Below are positions 34,663 through 41,129 of a stretch of DNA of 41,129 nucleotides, one piece after another. Position numbers and translations under genes: made by a program. Under the pieces are notes generated by a model. The model saw nothing but the letters and a program-made list of their open reading frames with translations. It had not been told where the DNA came from and ran no database searches. Origin of the DNA: Escherichia phage vB_EcoS_P1338; sequence record PP882707.1; one strand, written 5' to 3'. Position 1 is the stretch's first letter, and the number at the start of each line of letters is the position of its first letter.

Positions 34663-37314
34663 TTAGGCAAACGCAAAGTCTGACTTCAGGATTTCTTGGA
34701 GGTCGAGAGAGCCTTTAGCTGGCATCTCAGGCATCTTGTCTAACTGTGATTCGTGTAACTGCTCGGCGAATTGCTCATAGAAGTCTGCAAGTACATCGTT
34801 CTCTTCGTAAGTGTTGACCATCGTTTCACGCACTGCTTTAAACAGGTTGCCAGCATCAGCAGGGATAGTACCAAAGGAGTCATGAATCAGTGCAAAGGAT
34901 TCCACACCGTAGACCTCATTGGAGCGGACCACAGTCATGCGCAGGTGGCTACCATCCATTGAGTGAACAAAGTTAGGTGCGATGCCTGACTCCTGTTTAC
35001 GAGCATCAATCCCGCTATCCTTGTTGGTGTTCACGGTAGGCTGTAGACGAATCTGGCCTAAGAACATTAGGTTCAAGCGGGTCTGTACTGGCTTCTTGTA
35101 TTCCTGCCAGACCGGGAAGCCATCAGGAGTTACCCAATGTACTGCGCAACGCTTGCGAAGAACCTCTTTGGTCTTCTTGTCCTTGACTTCAGCAGCTAGG
35201 AGTTTAGCCGCAGACTTCAGCCAGTTCATTGCTTCAACAGCAGCGACCACAGTCACTGTTACCGATTCCCAAATCAGTTTAGCCATATAGCCAGCCGCTT
35301 GGTTCGGTTGAGTGAACATCAAGCCTTTACCATCGTCGATAGCTGGCTGAATGGTGTCCTCTAGCACTTGGTCACGGAAGCCGTACTCCTTGGACCCGTA
35401 AGCCAACGTCATGACCGAACGCTTAGTGACCTTGCGAGTCACACCATATGCCAACCATTGACCCGCTAACTCTTTCGTTCCCAGCTTGAGCTTCTCAGTG
35501 ATTTCACCAGTGTCCTTGTTTGTCACTGTTTCCACTTCGTTATCAGTGCCGTTGATTACCGCTCCGCGGAGCATCTCGTTAACACGGTCAGCAACAATGC
35601 GATAGATGTCTTGGACTTCCTTGCTTGGCAACAGGTTAACCGCACGACCACCTACTTCATCACGAAGCATCGCGGAGAAGTGCTGAATACCAGAGCAGCT
35701 ACCATCGAACGCCAGCGGCAGAGAGCAGTTGTAGTTCATGCCGTGGTGTTGAACTCCAGCATACTCGAAGCAGAACGCGAGGAAGCAGAACGGAGAGTCC
35801 TGTTCGGCCCACCAAGTGTTGGCAATCGGGTCAGCCGCAACGCTCATTATGTTCTCATGGTTGTCCTCAATGAACTTAATGCGTTCTGCGAAGTCCACCT
35901 TGTCCACACCAGCAGTGTTAGCACCATGAATCTTCAGCCAGTAGTACCCATCGACACCAATCGGTTTACCTTTAGCGAGCGTCAGCAAGCCTTTGGTCAT
36001 GTCGTTGCCTTGCGGGTTAAACATTGGAACTGCATACACTCGACCGCGCCAGTCCATGTTCATCGGGAACCAGATAGCTTTAAACTGTGCGAACTTATTG
36101 GCTTGCCCTAACATGAACTCCATGCTCATGCGACGAGACACGCGAGCCTTCTCTTTGCGGTAGATTGCGGAGGCCGCTTTCTTCCACGCTTTGAGTGATG
36201 CCTCGTTCGTGTCGATGTCTTCAGGTTTGACAGGCAGTTCACCACGTTCGAGAGCAGGTACATCGTCAACCGGGCAATGCTTCCAGTTCACAATCTCGTT
36301 GACCACTGCCAGAACCTTCTTGTTAATCTTCCAAGGAGTATTCTGTGCGATGTTCACCGCCTTGTAAACTTCAGGCATGTACACGTCGTTGTAACGCTCA
36401 AGTCCCTTCTTGGAACCAGTACGAACCAGAGAGAGCGGCTTGCGACCAGCAGCCCAATAGCCACCACCAACCGGACTCGTCCAAGGCTTCGGGGGGACCA
36501 CGCAAGGTTGATACATCGGAGCGATTGCAGCCAGTGCACCAGCACGCTTAGATAACAGGTCAACGTATTGTTCGGTCAGTTGGATGTACTCGCCATCCTT
36601 CTCAACGTTACCAGCAAACGGTCGGTGTAACTCAACGAGACCAGTAGACCCAATGAGCAGTTCCAACATGCGTACACCAACATGAATTGACTCTTCAGGT
36701 GTCCATGTGGTCCACTTGGTTTGCAGTTGACCAGCATCTAACATCTTACCTTCAACCGCTTGCATGAATGCCTTCTTGTAGACGATACCTACGCGCTTGT
36801 TGAGTGCTTCCTGTACATGGTTCTTAAAGTGCTTCGCTTCTTCGTCACGGATGCGACCAAAACGTAGCTCATCTTCAATACTGCGACCAATCTTAGTGGC
36901 GACCGATTGAAGGTTCGTGTATTCCTCTTTGGTCAAGCAAGCCAGTGTGACCTTCAGTGTGATGAATGCAGCAGCTTCAGGTGCAACCTTCTGTACCAAA
37001 TTGTAGGCCACTGGACGCTTGCCACGCTTAGCTTCCACTTCGGTGAACCAAGTGTTCCATGCTTCAATGAACTTAGGTGCGAGAGATGACAGGAGCGGTT
37101 TAGCCACTGCGTTATCACCGAACTCACCCGCTTTGATTTGACGTTCCATTGCCTTAAGGAAACGCTTCTCGCCTTCAGTGTGCGCTTCGTGTTCTAACTC
37201 AAGCTGCGTAGCTGCAAGCTGTGCGCCGTAATGGTCAGCCAGAATGTTGTACGGCTGAATTGCGTTAGCGATGTCAGAAAAGTCATTCTTTGGTGCATTG
37301 ATTACGTTAGTCAT
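34663..37314 (-). CDS. gp1: DNA-directed RNA polymerase (single-subunit, T7 RNAP type)
   Basis: 883 aa, same length as T7 RNAP and collinear throughout; palm and specificity-loop blocks conserved (NTNKDSGIDARKQESGIAPNFVHS, ALIHDSFGT, ending SDFAFA). Confidence 0.99.
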   Translation of the reverse strand: MTNVINAPKNDFSDIANAIQPYNILADHYGAQLAATQLELEHEAHTEGEKRFLKAMERQIKAGEFGDNAVAKPLLSSLAPKFIEAWNTWFTEVEAKRGKRPVAYNLVQKVAPEAAAFITLKVTLACLTKEEYTNLQSVATKIGRSIEDELRFGRIRDEEAKHFKNHVQEALNKRVGIVYKKAFMQAVEGKMLDAGQLQTKWTTWTPEESIHVGVRMLELLIGSTGLVELHRPFAGNVEKDGEYIQLTEQYVDLLSKRAGALAAIAPMYQPCVVPPKPWTSPVGGGYWAAGRKPLSLVRTGSKKGLERYNDVYMPEVYKAVNIAQNTPWKINKKVLAVVNEIVNWKHCPVDDVPALERGELPVKPEDIDTNEASLKAWKKAASAIYRKEKARVSRRMSMEFMLGQANKFAQFKAIWFPMNMDWRGRVYAVPMFNPQGNDMTKGLLTLAKGKPIGVDGYYWLKIHGANTAGVDKVDFAERIKFIEDNHENIMSVAADPIANTWWAEQDSPFCFLAFCFEYAGVQHHGMNYNCSLPLAFDGSCSGIQHFSAMLRDEVGGRAVNLLPSKEVQDIYRIVADRVNEMLRGAVINGTDNEVETVTNKDTGEITEKLKLGTKELAGQWLAYGVTRKVTKRSVMTLAYGSKEYGFRDQVLEDTIQPAIDDGKGLMFTQPNQAAGYMAKLIWESVTVTVVAAVEAMNWLKSAAKLLAAEVKDKKTKEVLRKRCAVHWVTPDGFPVWQEYKKPVQTRLNLMFLGQIRLQPTVNTNKDSGIDARKQESGIAPNFVHSMDGSHLRMTVVRSNEVYGVESFALIHDSFGTIPADAGNLFKAVRETMVNTYEENDVLADFYEQFAEQLHESQLDKMPEMPAKGSLDLQEILKSDFAFA

Positions 37315-37344
37315 TGTTGCCTCACGTTGTTAAGAAAGTTTATC

Positions 37345-37378
37345 TATAAAGGCCAGCAGTCAGTGCCGACCTTGAAGA
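37345..37378 (-). promoter_or_regulatory. hairpin between gene 0.7 and gene 1, candidate RNase III site (R1-like)
   Basis: minus strand AAGGTCGGCA-CTGAC-TGCTGGCCTT, ~10-bp stem with two G-U pairs. Confidence 0.4.
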
Positions 37379-37387
37379 TACACCTTA

Positions 37388-38491
37388 TCAGCCCATAAGA
37401 TGTGCGTCAATCAGTTTGTCAATCATCAGTGGTGCGCCAGCTTGGATAGCCAGACCGTCAGCCACTTGCCACTTGAAGCCGTTCACTTGGTCAACCTTGC
37501 GTACCGTTGCGTTGCCATTGCGAAGCCGGAAGTCATGCCGAACCGACCCCATGAGTATCTCAGCGCGGCGCTCATTTCTTTCGATTGCACCACGTTCCCT
37601 ACGGATTGCCATAAAGTGTAAGCGGTCACGTTTAGCCACACGTTCGGCGTGTTTACGGTTACGCTTGCGGCGCTTCATGTTGGCCTTGCGGTTGATGCGG
37701 AACGTGCCGTTCAGGTCACGCCTTGCCTTACGGTTGCGACACCGTTCAATGATGCGCTCGTTAGCTATCGCCTCGACCTCGGCAATCAGTGCATCAGGGT
37801 CTAAAGGGAAACCGTCCTCACGTTCACTGTCATGGGAGAAACTAACCGGGTCAGTGATGTACGGGACATCGTTGTCATCGAACATAATGTTCCCGTTGTG
37901 CATGTCGAAAGATGCAATGCCGTGGAAGAACTCACGAATCATCTTGCATGTCTCGATGAACTCCCTGCTAACGAACTCTTCGTACCAATCAGCATCACTG
38001 CCATAGCACTCTATGAACTCCTGTGCAGCACTCGCATATTTTGCGTGAGTGTCATTAGCGTATCGGTCGCAACTGTTCAAATGGTCCAATACAACCGTAT
38101 AGCAACCCGCATGACGTGCTACGTGATAGACGTTAGGGATACCCGCTCGGCCTTGATGCATCCTACAGAATGCAGTGTATGCAGCGCCTGAATCCTCTTT
38201 CTTAAAGCCAACCTTAATGACTCGACCCGGTAACATTTCGTGCGAGTAGGCCGCGCTGAAGTGACCATTGCCTAACATGCGGAAACCTGCATCGCACATC
38301 AGTGCACCCAATGTGTGCCACCAGTCTTGATACTCCAAGCCATTTGAGCCATCAGTATCGTTGCCATCGCTTGTCTCACCGTTCACGATGTCAGCAGCCA
38401 GTGCAACCAGAAGAGTCTGGCGCTTGTCCAGTTCGCTAATCGGGAGTGACTTGATGATTGCCAGACGTGCCTGAATGTCGGTGTAGTTCAT
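37388..38491 (-). CDS. gp0.7: serine/threonine protein kinase / host transcription shutoff protein
   Basis: 367 aa; HQDWWHTLGALMCDAGFRMLGNGHFSAAYSH...VIKVGFKKEDSGAAYTAFCRM...IASFDMHNGNIMF...VPYITDPVSFS matches T7 gp0.7 by recollection. Confidence 0.9.
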   Translation of the reverse strand: MNYTDIQARLAIIKSLPISELDKRQTLLVALAADIVNGETSDGNDTDGSNGLEYQDWWHTLGALMCDAGFRMLGNGHFSAAYSHEMLPGRVIKVGFKKEDSGAAYTAFCRMHQGRAGIPNVYHVARHAGCYTVVLDHLNSCDRYANDTHAKYASAAQEFIECYGSDADWYEEFVSREFIETCKMIREFFHGIASFDMHNGNIMFDDNDVPYITDPVSFSHDSEREDGFPLDPDALIAEVEAIANERIIERCRNRKARRDLNGTFRINRKANMKRRKRNRKHAERVAKRDRLHFMAIRRERGAIERNERRAEILMGSVRHDFRLRNGNATVRKVDQVNGFKWQVADGLAIQAGAPLMIDKLIDAHLMG

Positions 38492-38525
38492 TAGATTGTG
38501 TCCTATTTAGTTAAACTTTAAGAGA
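38476..38525 (-). repeat. copy 1 of a repeated translation-initiation cassette (leader + ATG + first codons) heading gene 0.7
   Basis: core cattagattgtgtcctatttagtt shared with 38769..38792 and 38951..38974; extended ~50-nt match to the copy at 38938..38992 including codons MNYTD. Confidence 0.8.
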
Positions 38526-38570
38526 TAGAGAGAAGAGTGTTAATGTGGTTAACTTCAATAATCTTGATTT

Positions 38571-38771
38571 TCACCTTACAATCTCTGCGTCCAATACTGA
38601 TACTCTAACTAATATCCCAGCGCCATTTTTAACTATGAATCCGTCTGAATTTGGCGCTATTTCAAAAACAAAATATTCTTCACCTGATTTAAGTAAGTAT
38701 TCATCAATATCAATTCTAGGTTTATTATTTCTTGGTTTGAATTTAATAAATAGCGGTCGTTCGTTAATCAT
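38571..38771 (-). CDS. hypothetical 66-aa protein, strongly AT-rich gene headed by cassette copy 2
   Basis: MINERPLFIKFKPRNNKPRIDIDEYLLKSGEEYFVFEIAPNSDGFIVKNGAGILVRVSVLDAEIVR; about 32 percent G+C by hand count against roughly 50 percent for the flanking genes. Confidence 0.55.
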   Translation of the reverse strand: MINERPLFIKFKPRNNKPRIDIDEYLLKSGEEYFVFEIAPNSDGFIVKNGAGILVRVSVLDAEIVR

Positions 38772-38800
38772 TAGATTGTGTCCTATTTAGTTTAAGAAAG
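38769..38800 (-). repeat. copy 2 of the repeated translation-initiation cassette
   Basis: cattagattgtgtcctatttagtt followed by a divergent leader. Confidence 0.8.
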
Positions 38801-38953
38801 AGAATTGAGGATTAAACGCGCTTCTTTACATGCCTTTGCTACCTTTCTGGCGGGTATCCTCTTCAGGTGCAATGCCTTCATTAGAGTCTCGTTGGTAGCA
38901 CCATATGCCAGTGTGTACAGAACTTTCTTAGTTAAACTATCGGTGTAGTTCAT
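38792..38953 (-). CDS. hypothetical 53-aa protein headed by cassette copy 3, sharing the MNYTD start of gp0.7
   Basis: hand-derived ORF MNYTDSLTKKVLYTLAYGATNETLMKALHLKRIPARKVAKACKEARLILNSLS; first 15 coding nt identical to gene 0.7. Confidence 0.4.
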   Translation of the reverse strand: MNYTDSLTKKVLYTLAYGATNETLMKALHLKRIPARKVAKACKEARLILNSLS

Positions 38954-38992
38954 TAGATTGTGTCCTATTTAGTTAGTTAAACTTTAAGAGAG
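38938..38992 (-). repeat. copy 3 of the repeated translation-initiation cassette
   Basis: gtgtagttcattagattgtgtcctatttagttagttaaactttaagagag; differs from copy 1 by a 4-nt insertion. Confidence 0.8.
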
Positions 38993-39247
38993 AGCGTTCA
39001 ATGTATTGGTTAATGCTTGCTCGAGTGCTGCGAGCTTCTGCGCTTTTAGCTTGGCCTTTCGTCTATGCCATGCAGCCCGCTCCTGTTCCTTGCGCCTTTC
39101 TAGGTTGTTCTCGCGCCAAGTTCTCACGATACGCCTATTTGCTGCATTGAGTGTGCCATTAGACCTATAGCCTTTCTTCAGCGCTTTATTCTGCGCCCCT
39201 GCGTCCAGAGCGTGTACCAAGTTTGCGGCGTTAATGTGTTGCAACAT
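38984..39247 (-). CDS. hypothetical basic, Ala/Lys/Arg-rich early protein
   Basis: track ORF 38984..39256 (GTG) trimmed to the first ATG; GGTAGGTG Shine-Dalgarno-like; 87 aa. Confidence 0.5.
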   Translation of the reverse strand: MLQHINAANLVHALDAGAQNKALKKGYRSNGTLNAANRRIVRTWRENNLERRKEQERAAWHRRKAKLKAQKLAALEQALTNTLNALS

Positions 39248-39428
39248 AGAAGACACCTACCTTGTTAGCCTTAAAGCGCCCGTTGCGTTCACGGACTGTG
39301 AATCGTGGTAGAAAGCCATACTTCAGGTGCGAGAAGTTAGCCTTGTGTACCTTGAGACCCTTTGTGAAGTCCTTCAGGAAGTACAGCGTGATTAGAGTGT
39401 AAACGAGTGCGACAAATACGTATAACAT
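39231..39428 (-). CDS. hypothetical 65-aa early protein with N-terminal transmembrane helix
   Basis: ATG preceded by AAGGTG; MLYVFVALVYTLITLYFL hydrophobic start; overlaps neighbouring ORFs in other frames. Confidence 0.45.
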   Translation of the reverse strand: MLYVFVALVYTLITLYFLKDFTKGLKVHKANFSHLKYGFLPRFTVRERNGRFKANKVGVFYVATH

Positions 39429-39564
39429 GTGGTGTCACCTTATAGAGTGCAAAGAGAGTTATTAATAGTGCGACGATGCCTAAGTTTGTGATGCCTGTGA
39501 TGTGCTTAGAGCCGCCTGTTACCTGCCATCCTGTGAAGAACCATCCAGACCAGTTAGTGAACAT
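39337..39564 (-). CDS. hypothetical 75-aa early protein with a central hydrophobic segment
   Basis: ATG inside the gene 0.4 3' end with GAGGA 9 nt upstream; ITNLGIVALLITLFALY hydrophobic stretch; 3' third overlaps the next ORF. Confidence 0.45.
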   Translation of the reverse strand: MFTNWSGWFFTGWQVTGGSKHITGITNLGIVALLITLFALYKVTPHVIRICRTRLHSNHAVLPEGLHKGSQGTQG

Positions 39565-39727
39565 TTAGTTTGTCCTCATCATTGTCAAGTGCAATTGCTT
39601 TGTTGTTGTCGTACAGTTCTTTTAGCTGGGCCATTGCGAGTCCCCAATCGAACCCGCAACGCACCATGTCACTATAGAACAATACAGTTTGAGCGGTCAG
39701 ACCGTATTGCGTGGTGTTGTTAGCCAT
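39554..39727 (-). CDS. gp0.4: gp0.4-like small protein (FtsZ inhibitor in T7)
   Basis: 57-aa ORF found by hand (under the track's 60-aa cut-off): [47 protein letters not shown]..., close to remembered T7 gp0.4; ATG overlaps the Ocr stop (TAATG). Confidence 0.75.
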   Translation of the reverse strand: MANNTTQYGLTAQTVLFYSDMVRCGFDWGLAMAQLKELYDNNKAIALDNDEDKLNVH

Positions 39728-40080
39728 TACTCTCCATCCTCCTCGTACTCTTCGACTTCCTCAAGATACTCGTTCAGTAAGTCTTCTGCGTCCTCCCAAA
39801 TGTCGATTGTGAGTTGCTCATAGATACGCGCTTGCAGGATACGGATAACGTCTTTGGTGTCCGGCATCAGACCAGAGTCTTCGAACTCAAGGTCAATGCC
39901 TTCGCTTGCCATTACACTGAAAATGTCGCTGTAGTAGTGCGGAACAGCATTATCAGCCACCATATGCACTGCATCGTGCAGGTCATCAGCGTCACGAATG
40001 TCATCATAACGGATGTTTTCTTTCAGCATTTCGTAAGCGTGGTCGAAAACGTTGTGATAAGTCATGTTAGACATAGCCAT
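39727..40080 (-). CDS. gp0.3: Ocr, DNA-mimic anti-restriction protein (inhibits type I R-M; also BREX in T7)
   Basis: 117 aa, same length as T7 Ocr and near-identical by recollection (MAMSNMTY...[44 protein letters not shown]). Confidence 0.95.
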
Positions 40081-40104
40081 TGTGTGTTACCTCATTGTGT
40101 GTGA

Positions 40105-40160
40105 TTAGTAGTGAATATCATAAAGGGCACCTTGCGATACCCTTGAGTTATCCGCTACGT
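40105..40160 (-). promoter_or_regulatory. RNase III processing site upstream of gene 0.3 (R0.3-like)
   Basis: minus strand TAGCGGATAACTCAAGGGTATCGCAAGGTGCCCTTTATGATATTCACTA matches the remembered T7 R0.3 region almost base for base. Confidence 0.7.
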
Positions 40161-40426
40161 GTGTACACTCAGTTACCGTGTCAACGATGTCGCCACACTC
40201 TACCATAACAACCATTCTTATGGTCTAAGGAATTACGGCGGGTTTTGTATGTCAGTTTTACTTTCATGGTAGTTCCTATTTTGTAGGTTTGCCTTACAGA
40301 CTACTTTGATTTGTTTACCGTGTCTGCATACTCCAGTAAACGGTGCTATCCGTAGCGAGTATCCGGCAGGTTTCGCAGTTCCTATCCGTTCTCTCTTTTT
40401 GCTGACTCGTTGTCAGCTTGTGGTAC

Positions 40427-40455
40427 ATCGTACCGTGTTTACTGCATGTTGTCAA
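40427..40455 (-). promoter_or_regulatory. host sigma70 early promoter A3
   Basis: minus strand TTGACA-17 nt-TACGAT within GGTTGACAACATGCAGTAAACACGGTACGATGTACC, near-identical to remembered T7 A3. Confidence 0.8.
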
Positions 40456-40551
40456 CCATCTTGTTTCGCTTTGTGTGCCGTGGTGCGCTTAAGTCACCTA
40501 GAAGACACCGTGCTCCAGTGTTGACGTTACTAGTGTTACCTAGCGTTGTGT

Positions 40552-40581
40552 ATCTTACTACATGTTACTTCGTGTTGTCAA
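40552..40581 (-). promoter_or_regulatory. host sigma70 early promoter A2
   Basis: minus strand AAAAACAGGCATTGACAACACGAAGTAACATGTAGTAAGAT, -35 TTGACA and -10 TAAGAT as in remembered T7 A2. Confidence 0.8.
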
Positions 40582-40678
40582 TGCCTGTTTTTCGTATGAC
40601 TTATCAGGCTGTCTACTTGACCACTTGACTAGTGGCATCTCAGCTATCCGGTGTTACCGTGTCGCCTTGATGTGATGA

Positions 40679-40706
40679 ATAATACACTATCTAATCTTAG
40701 AGTCAA
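40679..40706 (-). promoter_or_regulatory. host sigma70 early promoter A1
   Basis: minus strand TTGACT-16 nt-TATTAT. Confidence 0.65.
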
Positions 40707-40791
40707 TACTTAAAGTAACAAATAGTCGTCTTTAAGTAGTCTTTAAGTTATCCCTATAAGGAAGGGAATAGTAATAAGACTATAAACAACC

Positions 40792-40814
40792 ATTCCCAAT
40801 AGTGAGTCGCATTA
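40792..40814 (-). promoter_or_regulatory. T7-type promoter at the phage left end (phiOL-like)
   Basis: minus strand TAATGCGACTCACTATTGGGAAT. Confidence 0.7.
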
Positions 40815-40839
40815 GCTGTATGGTCTTTAAGGCTGGTCT

Positions 40840-41129
40840 AATAGTGGTAACGATAGGTGTCTATAGACTGAAGGCACCGACTGAAGGTTAACATAAGGAG
40901 AGGCAGCCATAAGGATAGACATAAGGTTAGCGTAGCTAATAAGAGGTGACATAAGGTGTTAACTCTAAGAGGAAACATAAGGTGATTACAGATAGGGACA
41001 CAGAGAGGACTACATATAGTGGTCATAATGTCCCCCCACACACCATATCTAGTGGTAACACCCAAAGTTAACCCAATGTCTCACATAAGGTTAGCGGAGC
41101 TAACAAGGATTGACATTAAGTGAACCATA
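40840..41129. repeat. array of short direct repeats (ACATAAGG units) at the phage left end, including a block resembling the T7 left terminal region
   Basis: acataagg recurs at least six times; minus-strand GGGTGTTACC...CTCTCTGTGTCCCTATCTGT matches remembered T7 left-end sequence. Confidence 0.45.

Follow-up and report, generated by a model that had tools for sequence, protein, structure and literature searches.

The three copies of one short leader in the early region of Escherichia phage vB_EcoS_P1338 (PP882707.1; the whole 41,129-nt stretch analysed is hereafter called the window) are very probably three "upstream gene to 0.7" junctions, contributed by three parental haplotypes and joined in tandem by recombination. 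Judging by its T7 ortholog, the repeated sequence is the native translation-initiation region of gene 0.7 and not a special cassette, and it appears to have been triplicated because two insertion or unequal-crossover events duplicated this resident leader as a by-product. The locus is a clear and fairly ordinary example of accessory-gene gain in phages, with no new kind of element involved.

The 24-nt sequence (AACTAAATAGGACACAATCTAATG on the minus strand) is present exactly three times in the window: CATTAGATTGTGTCCTATTTAGTT matches perfectly at 38489-38512 (copy 1), 38769-38792 (copy 2) and 38951-38974 (copy 3), confirming the observation of the initial annotation that three tandem genes begin with the same sequence. 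No fourth copy was found in the genome with 3 mismatches allowed, and 100 dinucleotide shuffles gave 0 matches to the 24-mer, i.e., none are expected by chance. Every copy ends in the ATG of one minus-strand gene (CAT on the plus strand), the genes served being the gp0.7 kinase, a 66-aa ORF and a 53-aa ORF, and upstream of each of the three ATGs all three frames are closed. The copies are spaced 182 and 280 nt apart and the intervals are conserved ORFs, in agreement with the earlier view that this is not a CRISPR array. Exact identity between copies 1 and 3 extends over 36 nt (38478-38513 versus 38940-38975) and includes the first 14 coding nt, coding nt 15 being a synonymous C/T difference; approximately 15 nt more upstream (CTCTTAAAGTTTAAC) also agree, shifted by a 4-nt TAAC indel, which brings the overall agreement to about 51/55 nt. 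The match of ~50 nt previously reported for these two copies is valid as an overall agreement, and both gp0.7 and the 53-aa protein do start with MNYTD and show no likeness afterwards, but the match is exact over the shorter run only. Copy 2 has the leader alone, 24-26 nt, in common with the others.

The leader is made up of a CT-rich tract, stop codons in three frames, the SD AGGA, a 9-nt spacer and ATG. Its T7 ortholog is TAAAGGACACAATGCAATG, and comparison of the T7 leader TAAAGGACACAATGCAATGAACATTACCGAC with the window leader TAAATAGGACACAATCTAATGAACTACACCGAC reveals homology (GGACACAAT..AATGAAC), with the SD AGGA about 9 nt ahead of the ATG. Position agrees as well: copy 1 (38489..38512, minus strand) lies just upstream of gene 0.7, encoding a 367-aa Ser/Thr protein kinase (37388..38491, minus strand), and the same holds in T7, where the ribosome-binding region of gene 0.7 (T7 nt ~2000-2035) likewise follows a 0.6B-type stop. 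The upstream part of copy 1 (38513..38528, minus strand; CTATCTCTTAAAGTTT) is CT-rich and stop-rich, with stops in all three frames, and this CT-rich part before 0.7 is kept in BSP161, P694, L006 and Carena regardless of the sequence further upstream. The kinase assignment follows the annotation of relatives, and PF27024 matches homologous 0.7 products in related contigs; an exact look-up of the window gp0.7 protein returned no identical entry. Gene 0.7 is directly preceded by the same leader in 84 phage records, among which the leader occurs in two places only in PC127 and PC192, and it is single-copy in about 80 Berlinvirus genomes. T7 and these Berlinviruses have one copy, whereas the window has three, two of which serve other genes. 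What the initial annotation read as a set of interchangeable 5' ends is one resident 0.7 leader, orthologous to that of T7; the objection that the repeat might be universal and invariant does not hold either, as it is single-copy in most relatives.

Signals other than those of translation are lacking at the leader. Its RNA is less structured than shuffled controls (copy 1 z = +1.4), with an MFE of -1.9 to -7.1 kcal/mol that is not better than shuffles. Promoter-like sites are at chance level (7 versus 6.3 expected), with none on the leader core; the terminator scan gave 0 terminator-like sites, the Rfam scan of 37300-41129 no match at E ≤ 1, and there is no inverted repeat at the leader copies. 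The copies qualify as putative ribosome-binding sites with the SD AGGA, a 9-nt spacer, ATG and apparently unstructured RNA, which supports the earlier reading of them as translation-initiation regions.

Upstream of the leader lies a variable slot, the left border of which is the stop codon of a 0.6A-like gene (65 aa; 39231..39428, minus strand; phrog_2385). Between 0.6A and the leader, relatives carry allele A (JSS1, Ship_A7, LPST144), allele B, a 54-aa gene found in 12 or more genomes, a third short ORF C (L006), an empty slot (BSP161, P483) or a spacer (Carena). With at least five alternative contents, the 0.6A-0.7 interval is a hotspot of gene gain and replacement, which bears out the earlier description of the gp0.4-gp0.7 interval as a gene-gain hotspot. 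All slot alternatives terminate in …TCTTAA(A) plus the leader, and alleles A, B and C start within the 0.6A 3' overlap. Normal A/B/C swaps are bordered on the left by the 0.6A stop codon and not by a copy of the cassette. Allele A of the window (38984..39247, minus strand; phrog_8393) encodes 87 aa from its ATG and is a homolog of the C-terminal region of T7 0.6B, with residues 23-87 showing 88% identity to T7 1802-1996. Allele A, allele B and the 66-aa gene in tandem were found in the window only, among the sequences recovered.

Copy 3 together with the first 14 nt of gene 0.7 (38940..38992, minus strand) is a native allele-A-to-0.7 junction of an L055-like parent, in its TAAC indel variant: allele A of L055 is the same as in the window at 241/241 nt, its A-to-0.7 junction corresponds to copy 3, the TAAC indel included, and the window copy 3 region is identical to L055 2741-2808, where an intact gene 0.7 follows. 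Copy 2 (38769..38794, minus strand), which contains the TAA stop of the 53-aa ORF, is a native allele-B-to-0.7 junction now located ahead of the 66-aa gene; the same junction, TCTTTCTTAAACT(A/C/T)AATAGG, runs straight into 0.7 in ETEP21B and ErnstBeyeler.

The 66-aa gene (38571..38771, minus strand) derives from a T1-like (Drexlerviridae) phage. Its product matches the phrog_29417 profile over its whole length (E = 1e-30, 1-66 of 66) and has homologs in 14 Drexlerviridae-type records at 65-97% aa identity (65-68% to Jk06 and ACG-M12), the gene being 95% identical to vB_Ec-G8 at the nt level. Its GC content is 31.8%, against 47.9% for the genome, and synonymous changes prevail over nonsynonymous ones (4:0, 7:2 and 11:0). 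At its Drexlerviridae home the gene belongs to an ATGA-coupled operon and has its own GGAGG SD; as the comparison with these homologs indicates, the gene is foreign, and the resident leader has taken the place of the donor SD, with the joint precisely at the ATG. Behind the gene lies a scar, an 18-codon GTG mini-ORF (38518..38574, minus strand) in which, on evidence that includes alignment to the allele A 3' end, the opening codons (MKI…) of the gene that follows in the donor run into the final ~25 nt of allele A (…NTLLSIS and stop). One 9/12 promoter match, at 38543-38515, overlaps this scar. The AlphaFold model of the 66-aa protein weakly resembles SH3 domains (Foldseek E ≥ 0.017), which hints at an SH3-like small beta-barrel. 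A "66-aa" gene in P694, initially a candidate for the same Drexlerviridae gene, was rejected as an unrelated 0.5-type gene.

The 53-aa gene (38792..38953, minus strand) has the body of allele B (phrog_10380), with its first codons taken from gene 0.7 (MNYTD for MLQHTD). Three-way comparison of the window, L055 and PC127/L045 places the crossover at 38939..38940 on the minus strand, within the microhomology ACAC(C/T)GA, where the 0.7 5' end (…ACACCGA) continues in frame into the allele B body (TAGTTTAAC…). Elsewhere, B always starts from the 0.6A overlap, with MLQHTD at 11 loci and MTERTD at one, on the T7-type backbone L056. The MNYTD start on B is found in the window alone; exact look-up of the 53-aa protein found nothing identical on record. 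The synonymous to nonsynonymous ratio of codon changes in B is about 1:1, and B is under only mild purifying selection. A three-helix model of the protein gave no significant structural match (E ≥ 2.5; LuxR/GerE-like HTH and small-terminase hits). Pfam detected no domain in the small proteins (six tested, from 0.4 to the 66-aa ORF), and in PHROGs they fall only into families of unknown function. Both the 53-aa and the 66-aa ORF look coding and, to judge from their conservation, are probably translated, which speaks against the objection that they are not.

These parts suggest two events. In the first, as PC127-type genomes imply, a B-type Berlinvirus would have received the 66-aa gene of a T1-like siphovirus precisely at the ATG of its 0.7 leader, with the microhomology TCT(A/T)ATGA at the left joint, while the right end of the gene would have met the final ~25 nt of allele A, followed by a second 0.7 leader, giving B-leader-66aa-scar-leader-0.7; no intermediate of this step was found. 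In the second, specific to the window, one unequal crossover at ACAC(C/T)GA would have connected an L055-like A-type genome, cut 14 nt into 0.7, with the allele B start of a PC127-like genome, yielding A-leader-B'-leader-66aa-scar-leader-0.7 and giving B its MNYTD start. The order given here for the two events is tentative. The earlier idea that different coding bodies were spliced at the cassette is correct insofar as a foreign gene and the B body were added there, but the leader is 0.7's own, duplicated in passing, and the joints lie at microhomologies, TCT(A/T)ATGA for the 66-aa gene and ACAC(C/T)GA for the 53-aa gene, instead of arising by homologous recombination within it. Since the junctions are joined at the leader, the added genes would inherit an unstructured RBS in the early polycistronic mRNA, while 0.7 retains its own. 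The breakpoints at the ATG likely reflect selection for such an inherited RBS with 0.7 kept expressed. Both additive events (2/2) were broken within 0-14 nt of the 0.7 ATG, and a mechanistic hot spot, beyond selection, is possible.

The 66-aa gene lies between two leaders in PC127, the window and 7 contigs, and is absent, with a single leader, from ETEP21B, FE44 and others. From the B body through copy 2 and the 66-aa gene to the scar, the window shows 95-99% identity to PC127, L045 and L049, and the module with a 100% identical 66-aa protein is present in four backbones: Berlinvirus with SAMase, Berlinvirus with Ocr, T7-type 0.7 and Kayfunavirus, while normal Kayfunaviruses are without it. 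No prior account of the repeat in Berlinviruses was found in the literature. Such spread invites a stronger proposal, in which the 0.7 leader, with its three-frame stops, SD and ATG, serves as a landing pad, or portable recombination site, for accessory cassettes across Studiervirinae, and genes bracketed by it, such as the 66-aa gene, excise and re-insert by homologous recombination during co-infection. If true, the leader would parallel T4 PeSLs and integron cassettes at the level of translation and with no promoter, and the recent passage of the module between Berlinvirus, T7-type and Kayfunavirus backbones would be accounted for; we regard this as unlikely.

Decidedly doubtful, too, is the version in which the leader is a dedicated mobile linker, the T7-group counterpart of T4 PeSLs or integron sites, so that the repeats would drive mobility instead of being left behind by it. 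Here, leader-flanked genes would routinely excise, possibly as circles, and re-insert at any resident copy by homologous recombination. It draws on the identical 66-aa protein in four backbones, on the breaks of both additive events at the ATG and on L048 and L051, which change from Berlin-type to T7-type sequence within the leader (at ATGAAC); exchange by homology does seem to occur at the leader, though later than the primary joints. The leader plus the first ~28 coding nt is also the most conserved stretch of the region, a profile given little weight as it is biased by the choice of loci by a pattern in the same region. However, only the 66-aa gene and the one-off B fusion have ever been found between copies, about 80 genomes are single-copy, and the metagenome searches, which might have uncovered further multi-copy loci, gave none: IMG/VR scans with the 24-mer and the 17-mer returned single-copy Berlinvirus loci only (5 loci), and the 17-mer scan of JGI metagenomes 5 single-copy Berlinvirus contigs and 18 chance hits in unrelated AT-rich DNA. 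Moreover, the Kayfunavirus transfer junctions fall outside the leader, at AGCG and ACGTCTGG microhomologies or at homeology within 0.6A, the A/B/C swaps are bounded on the left by the stop codon of 0.6A, and no recombinase or nuclease gene is present.

It is highly improbable that the arrangement is an assembly artefact, produced by mis-joining mixed A-type and B+66-type Berlinviruses at their common leader. The three-copy state and the MNYTD-B fusion have the window as their sole instance, and both parental types plus a donor-like Drexlerviridae contig occur in SRR20950718, SRR20950768, SRR20950777 and SRR20950906, runs with adjacent accession numbers that probably belong to one sequencing project. 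Yet the joint from the A leader to B (…ACACCGA|TAGTTT…) is new and in frame, its 7-nt imperfect microhomology with the parents is too short for k-mer graph bridging, and the two-copy module was found independently in 9 isolates or contigs. Still less credible is that the repeat is kept identical as a cis-regulatory site, for example a translational repressor target or an RNA-processing site, co-regulating the three genes: 24 nt are perfectly identical and the leader is highly conserved across Berlinviruses, but this identity follows from recent origin, as the flanking sequences, too, match the parents at 95-100% identity, and structure, an Rfam family, an inverted repeat and, in most relatives, a second copy are all missing. 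A further alternative, in which the 0.7 start was duplicated in tandem on the spot and the copies then diverged, so that the 53-aa and 66-aa ORFs would be decayed 0.7 paralogs with a leader and MNYTD start in common, is effectively refuted by the homologs of both bodies with other 5' ends (B behind 0.6A in 12 or more genomes, the 66-aa gene in Drexlerviridae operons), by the loss of any 0.7 similarity past 14 nt and by the 31.8% GC of the 66-aa gene.

Among known systems, the stacked junctions invite comparison with the promoter-early stem-loops (PeSLs) of T4-type phages, described as mobile regulatory cassettes (Arbiol et al. 2010, PMC2839356; PMC4122927). In both, small ORFans of a hyperplastic region lie next to conserved intergenic units that end in an SD and ATG, an ORFan may sit between two copies in one phage where a close relative has a single copy (here the presence/absence 66-aa gene), and direct repeats could mediate excision or insertion. 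In contrast, the leader has neither the sigma-70 early promoter of PeSLs, promoter sites being at chance level, nor their conserved GC-rich stem-loop/terminator, terminator-like sites numbering 0; it has translation signals alone, within a single polycistronic early mRNA, its copies number just 2-3, all at one locus, and the primary joints lie at microhomologies. An integron gene cassette is not indicated, there being no attC/attI-like inverted repeat and no integrase Pfam domain among the six small proteins; the large genes neighbouring the locus are the 0.7 kinase and RNA polymerase. Homing-endonuclease insertion finds no support in the small ORFs, which lack Pfam HNH, GIY-YIG and LAGLIDADG domains and have predicted folds of an SH3-like barrel and a 3-helix bundle. 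A moron is an inserted gene with its own promoter and terminator, whereas the 66-aa gene brought neither and lost its own SD.

Linker and boundary sequences of modular phage evolution are familiar from the Susskind-Botstein model, gene-boundary exchange in lambdoid phages and moron accretion. The locus resembles them in that unrelated alleles occupy one slot, bounded by the conserved 0.6A 3' end and the 0.7 leader, and in that a foreign gene of deviant GC was added between resident genes, although the duplicated boundary here is an RBS; such sequences are discussed in PMC2839356.

As a side effect of the stacking, the inserts are now flanked by direct repeats of 24-51 nt. Early-region deletion mutants of T7 are known, and the T7-type machinery for replication and recombination works efficiently on direct repeats that are tens of bp long. 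T7-type recombination via these repeats would therefore be predicted to delete or move genes precisely, with losses of 182-, 280- or 462-bp units. Deletions between short direct repeats in T7 were treated by Pierce & Masker 1989 (Mol Gen Genet 217:215), as cited in PMC5449768. Those deletions involve loss only, whereas the window repeats arose by gene gain and are predicted to be unstable.

For phage engineering, the locus points to an insertion site and a leader, both validated in nature, from which payloads could be expressed early in infection, with the caution that inserts between direct repeats may be precisely lost. It also shows, at base-pair resolution, one way for strictly lytic T7-like phages to acquire host-takeover genes while the essential early operon stays undisturbed: a newcomer joined at the resident start codon takes the resident RBS, and a second copy keeps the resident gene expressed. 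Finally, it records the recent passage of a gene from a T1-like siphovirus to podoviruses of three genera.

Recombination that added genes of different origins has duplicated the ribosome-binding site of gene 0.7, as the following comparisons show. The coding-strand 24-mer AACTAAATAGGACACAATCTAATG occurs in three exact copies in the window, just where the initial annotation had located them, each ending in the ATG of gene 0.7 (copy 1), the 66-aa ORF (copy 2) or the 53-aa ORF (copy 3); no further match was found in the window at ≤3 mismatches, and 100 shuffles contained no match at all. Between copies 1 and 3 an exact match runs for 36 nt and takes in the first 14 coding nt, and both copies carry CTCTTAAAGTTTAAC further upstream, displaced by a 4-nt TAAC indel. 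A 49-nt leader probe matched 84 phage records, almost all Berlinvirus-type, at a single place immediately before the kinase gene, with two places only in PC127 and PC192, and T7 has the orthologous leader at the orthologous position (…ATCTCATAACGAACATAAAGGACACAATGCAATGAACATTACCGAC). Judged by sequence, the repeated unit is the resident translation-initiation region of this kinase gene, gp0.7 (37388-38491, minus strand), which is followed by RNA polymerase. The leader comprises a CT-rich tract, stops closing all three frames, the Shine-Dalgarno (SD) motif AGGA, a 9-nt spacer and ATG; its RNA is less structured than shuffled controls, and an Rfam search matched no family. A scan for promoters and terminators ruled out both roles.

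The interval between the 0.6A stop and the leader is a polymorphic slot, and its alternative contents among relatives bear out the earlier proposal of a hotspot for gene gain. Allele A, a 0.6B-like gene with 88% identity to the T7 0.6B/"0.65" region over residues 23-87, occupies it in JSS1, Ship_A7, LPST144 and others; allele B, encoding an unrelated 54-aa protein (MLQHTDSLTKK…, phrog_10380), in ETEP21B, FE44, P694, ErnstBeyeler, CECAV_058 and five metagenome contigs; and a 31-codon hydrophobic ORF in the contig L006. The slot is empty in BSP161 and P483 and holds a spacer after a T7-type 0.6A in Carena, while the contig L056, with a T7-type backbone, carries allele B in the same slot with the T7-type leader as its border. 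All slot alleles start within the 0.6A overlap, and most finish with …TCT TAA, which is part of the conserved leader. In the window, allele A lies at 38984-39247 and the body of allele B, the 53-aa ORF, at 38792-38953 (both minus strand). The B protein is modelled as a three-helix bundle, for which a structure search gave no significant match. The N-terminal third of the window's allele A (INAANLVHALDAG…) is absent from T7 0.6B and resembles the start of a Kayfunavirus 108-aa protein (…GINLVHALDAD…; contigs L053, L054 and L044), suggesting that allele A is itself internally mosaic. In the Kayfunavirus-type contig L047 (SRR10828591_134411, 1292-1624), the 0.6A/B overlap is one base shorter than in Berlinvirus sequences, so that a 0.6A-like gene and allele B form a single reading frame of 110 aa. 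The fused protein is like the frameshift product that has been proposed for T7 0.6B, a hint that the slot may normally be read as an extension of 0.6A.

The 66-aa gene (38571-38771, minus strand; phrog_29417) is foreign to the window genome, with a GC content of 31.8% against 47.9% for the whole. Its relatives lie in ATGA-coupled operons of T1-like Drexlerviridae, the closest in vB_Ec-G8 (95% nt, 97% aa), and protein identity is 65-68% aa in Jk06, ACG-M12, phiEB49 and Veterinaerplatzvirus. Synonymous to nonsynonymous changes among homologs number 4:0, 7:2 and 11:0, and this synonymous excess marks the ORF, on codon evidence, as a real coding gene; its AlphaFold model is a small beta-barrel (pLDDT 77) weakly resembling SH3 domains. 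In the podovirus copies the donor SD, GGAGGATTTCTT, is swapped for the 0.7 leader exactly at the ATG, with microhomology TCT(A/T)ATGA. On the 3' side, the next gene of the donor contributes about 10 nt (GTGAAAATC…), which run into the final ~25 nt of allele A; this fusion creates an 18-codon scar ORF, and the second leader follows.

The three-copy arrangement can be traced to two parental types. PC127 and PC192 have the order 0.6A, B, leader, 66-aa gene, scar, leader, 0.7, and the contig L055 has 0.6A, A, leader, 0.7. The A body of L055 is identical to that of the window (241/241), and its junction equals window copy 3, TAAC indel included. The window matches L055 as far as …ATGAACTACACCGA and then PC127 and the contig L045 from TAGTTTAACTAAG…, the B parent reading …CAACACACTGA|TAGTTT… at the crossover point. 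By this parental comparison, the joint between the A-leader and B is an in-frame unequal crossover at ACAC(C/T)GA (window 38940|38939). That single event explains why there is a third leader, why B starts with MNYTD and why identities are mosaic across the slot (98% to PC127 for 0.6A, 100% to L055 for A, 96-99% to PC127/L045 for B and the 66-aa gene, and 97% to JSS1 for the 5' end of 0.7). In a comparison of 12 B loci and 8 protein clusters, the MNYTD start was confined to the window, and an exact look-up of the protein returned no record. On this reconstruction, the three copies are three native "X to 0.7" junctions, each from a different haplotype, and the three-copy state appears in the assembled window alone. 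The contigs L048, L050, L052 and L055 derive from runs with adjacent accession numbers (SRR20950906, SRR20950718, SRR20950768 and SRR20950777), probably one project; these runs include the B+66 module, the A-type parental junction in exact form, and a Drexlerviridae contig whose 66-aa gene is 94% identical, so that the inferred recombination partners co-occur in one sample series.

Four kinds of backbone carry the exact 66-aa protein between two leaders: Berlinviruses with SAMase (PC127, L045), Berlinviruses with Ocr (L049, the window), contigs with a T7-type 0.7 of 93% identity to T7 downstream (L048, L051), where the Berlin-to-T7 switch lies within ATGAAC, and Kayfunavirus (L044, L047). In the Kayfunavirus contigs the module extends into gene 0.7, bringing its first 30 nt along as a stub of 17 codons, and the joints lie at the microhomologies AGCG and ACGTCTGG or inside the homeologous 0.6A gene; the module is missing from the ordinary Kayfunaviruses U8 and ST64. 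Homologous exchange in conserved flanks, sometimes in the leader itself, and illegitimate joining are therefore both at work. The leader moves mostly as a passenger in module transfer, and the primary joints are not inside the repeat. The initial annotation is confirmed in its observation and partly supported in its reading: its gene-gain hotspot holds, and homologous recombination at the cassette, which it took as the probable source of the arrangement, is not supported as stated.

Surviving recombinants would be those in which the newcomer was joined at or just past the resident ATG and 0.7 retained its own leader copy. The newcomer would then be translated from a proven ribosome-binding site within the early polycistronic mRNA, the three-frame stop block giving clean termination to an upstream ORF of any frame. 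The 24-51-nt direct repeats are further predicted to let the T7-type recombination machinery excise 182, 280 or 462 bp precisely, or move the genes; in T7, direct repeats have been reported to give rise to deletions between them (Pierce & Masker 1989, as cited in PMC5449768). That the breakpoints cluster at the ATG may be due to selection alone or to a mechanistic hot spot.

Among known systems, the PeSL cassettes of T4-type phages come closest: these are conserved intergenic units that end in SD and ATG and bracket ORFans variable between close relatives (PMC2839356). The leader works partly in this way but is not a PeSL, since it lacks the defining promoter and stem-loop, has just 2-3 copies at one locus, and its primary joints fall outside the repeat. 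Membership tests rejected readings of the leader-flanked genes as integron cassettes, of the inserted gene as a moron or a homing-endonuclease insertion, and of the repeats as a CRISPR array, the last as already stated in the initial annotation. A literature search found no earlier description of the leader repeat. The finding is a well-resolved case of a known process in which modules are exchanged and genes accrue at conserved gene boundaries. It is less usual in that the duplicated boundary is purely a ribosome-binding site and that the cargo, a recent arrival from another phage family, is now spreading through three genera of Studiervirinae.

Elsewhere in the early region of this T7-like genome, which begins with three sigma-70 promoters (~40706-40427) and is read on the minus strand, the window has a T7-type Ocr/0.3 (39727-40080) where most Berlinviruses have SAM hydrolase, followed by 0.4 (39554-39727); L055 carries SAMase and Ocr in tandem (976-1861), another additive arrangement. 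A 75-aa ORF (39337-39564; phrog_27091) that is related to ORF2 of Yersinia phage Berlin shares 92 nt, in a different frame, with the 0.6A-like gene (39231-39428; phrog_2385). P694 and L055 have an unrelated 66-aa "0.5-type" gene at its position, preceded in P694 by an RNase III-like hairpin sequence, and the position looks like a second variable slot. A 20-nt inverted repeat, TTTAAGAAAGAGAATTGAGG, 90% complementary, pairs 38187-38206 inside gene 0.7 with 38791-38810 at the 3' end of the 53-aa gene, 584 nt apart, probably by chance. CATAAGG occurs 22 times in the window against ~3.8 expected, with 10 occurrences clustered at the ends (7-243 and 40892-41090, plus strand); by analogy with the short repeat arrays beside T7-type terminal repeats, these clusters suggest that the window spans an entire, terminally redundant genome.
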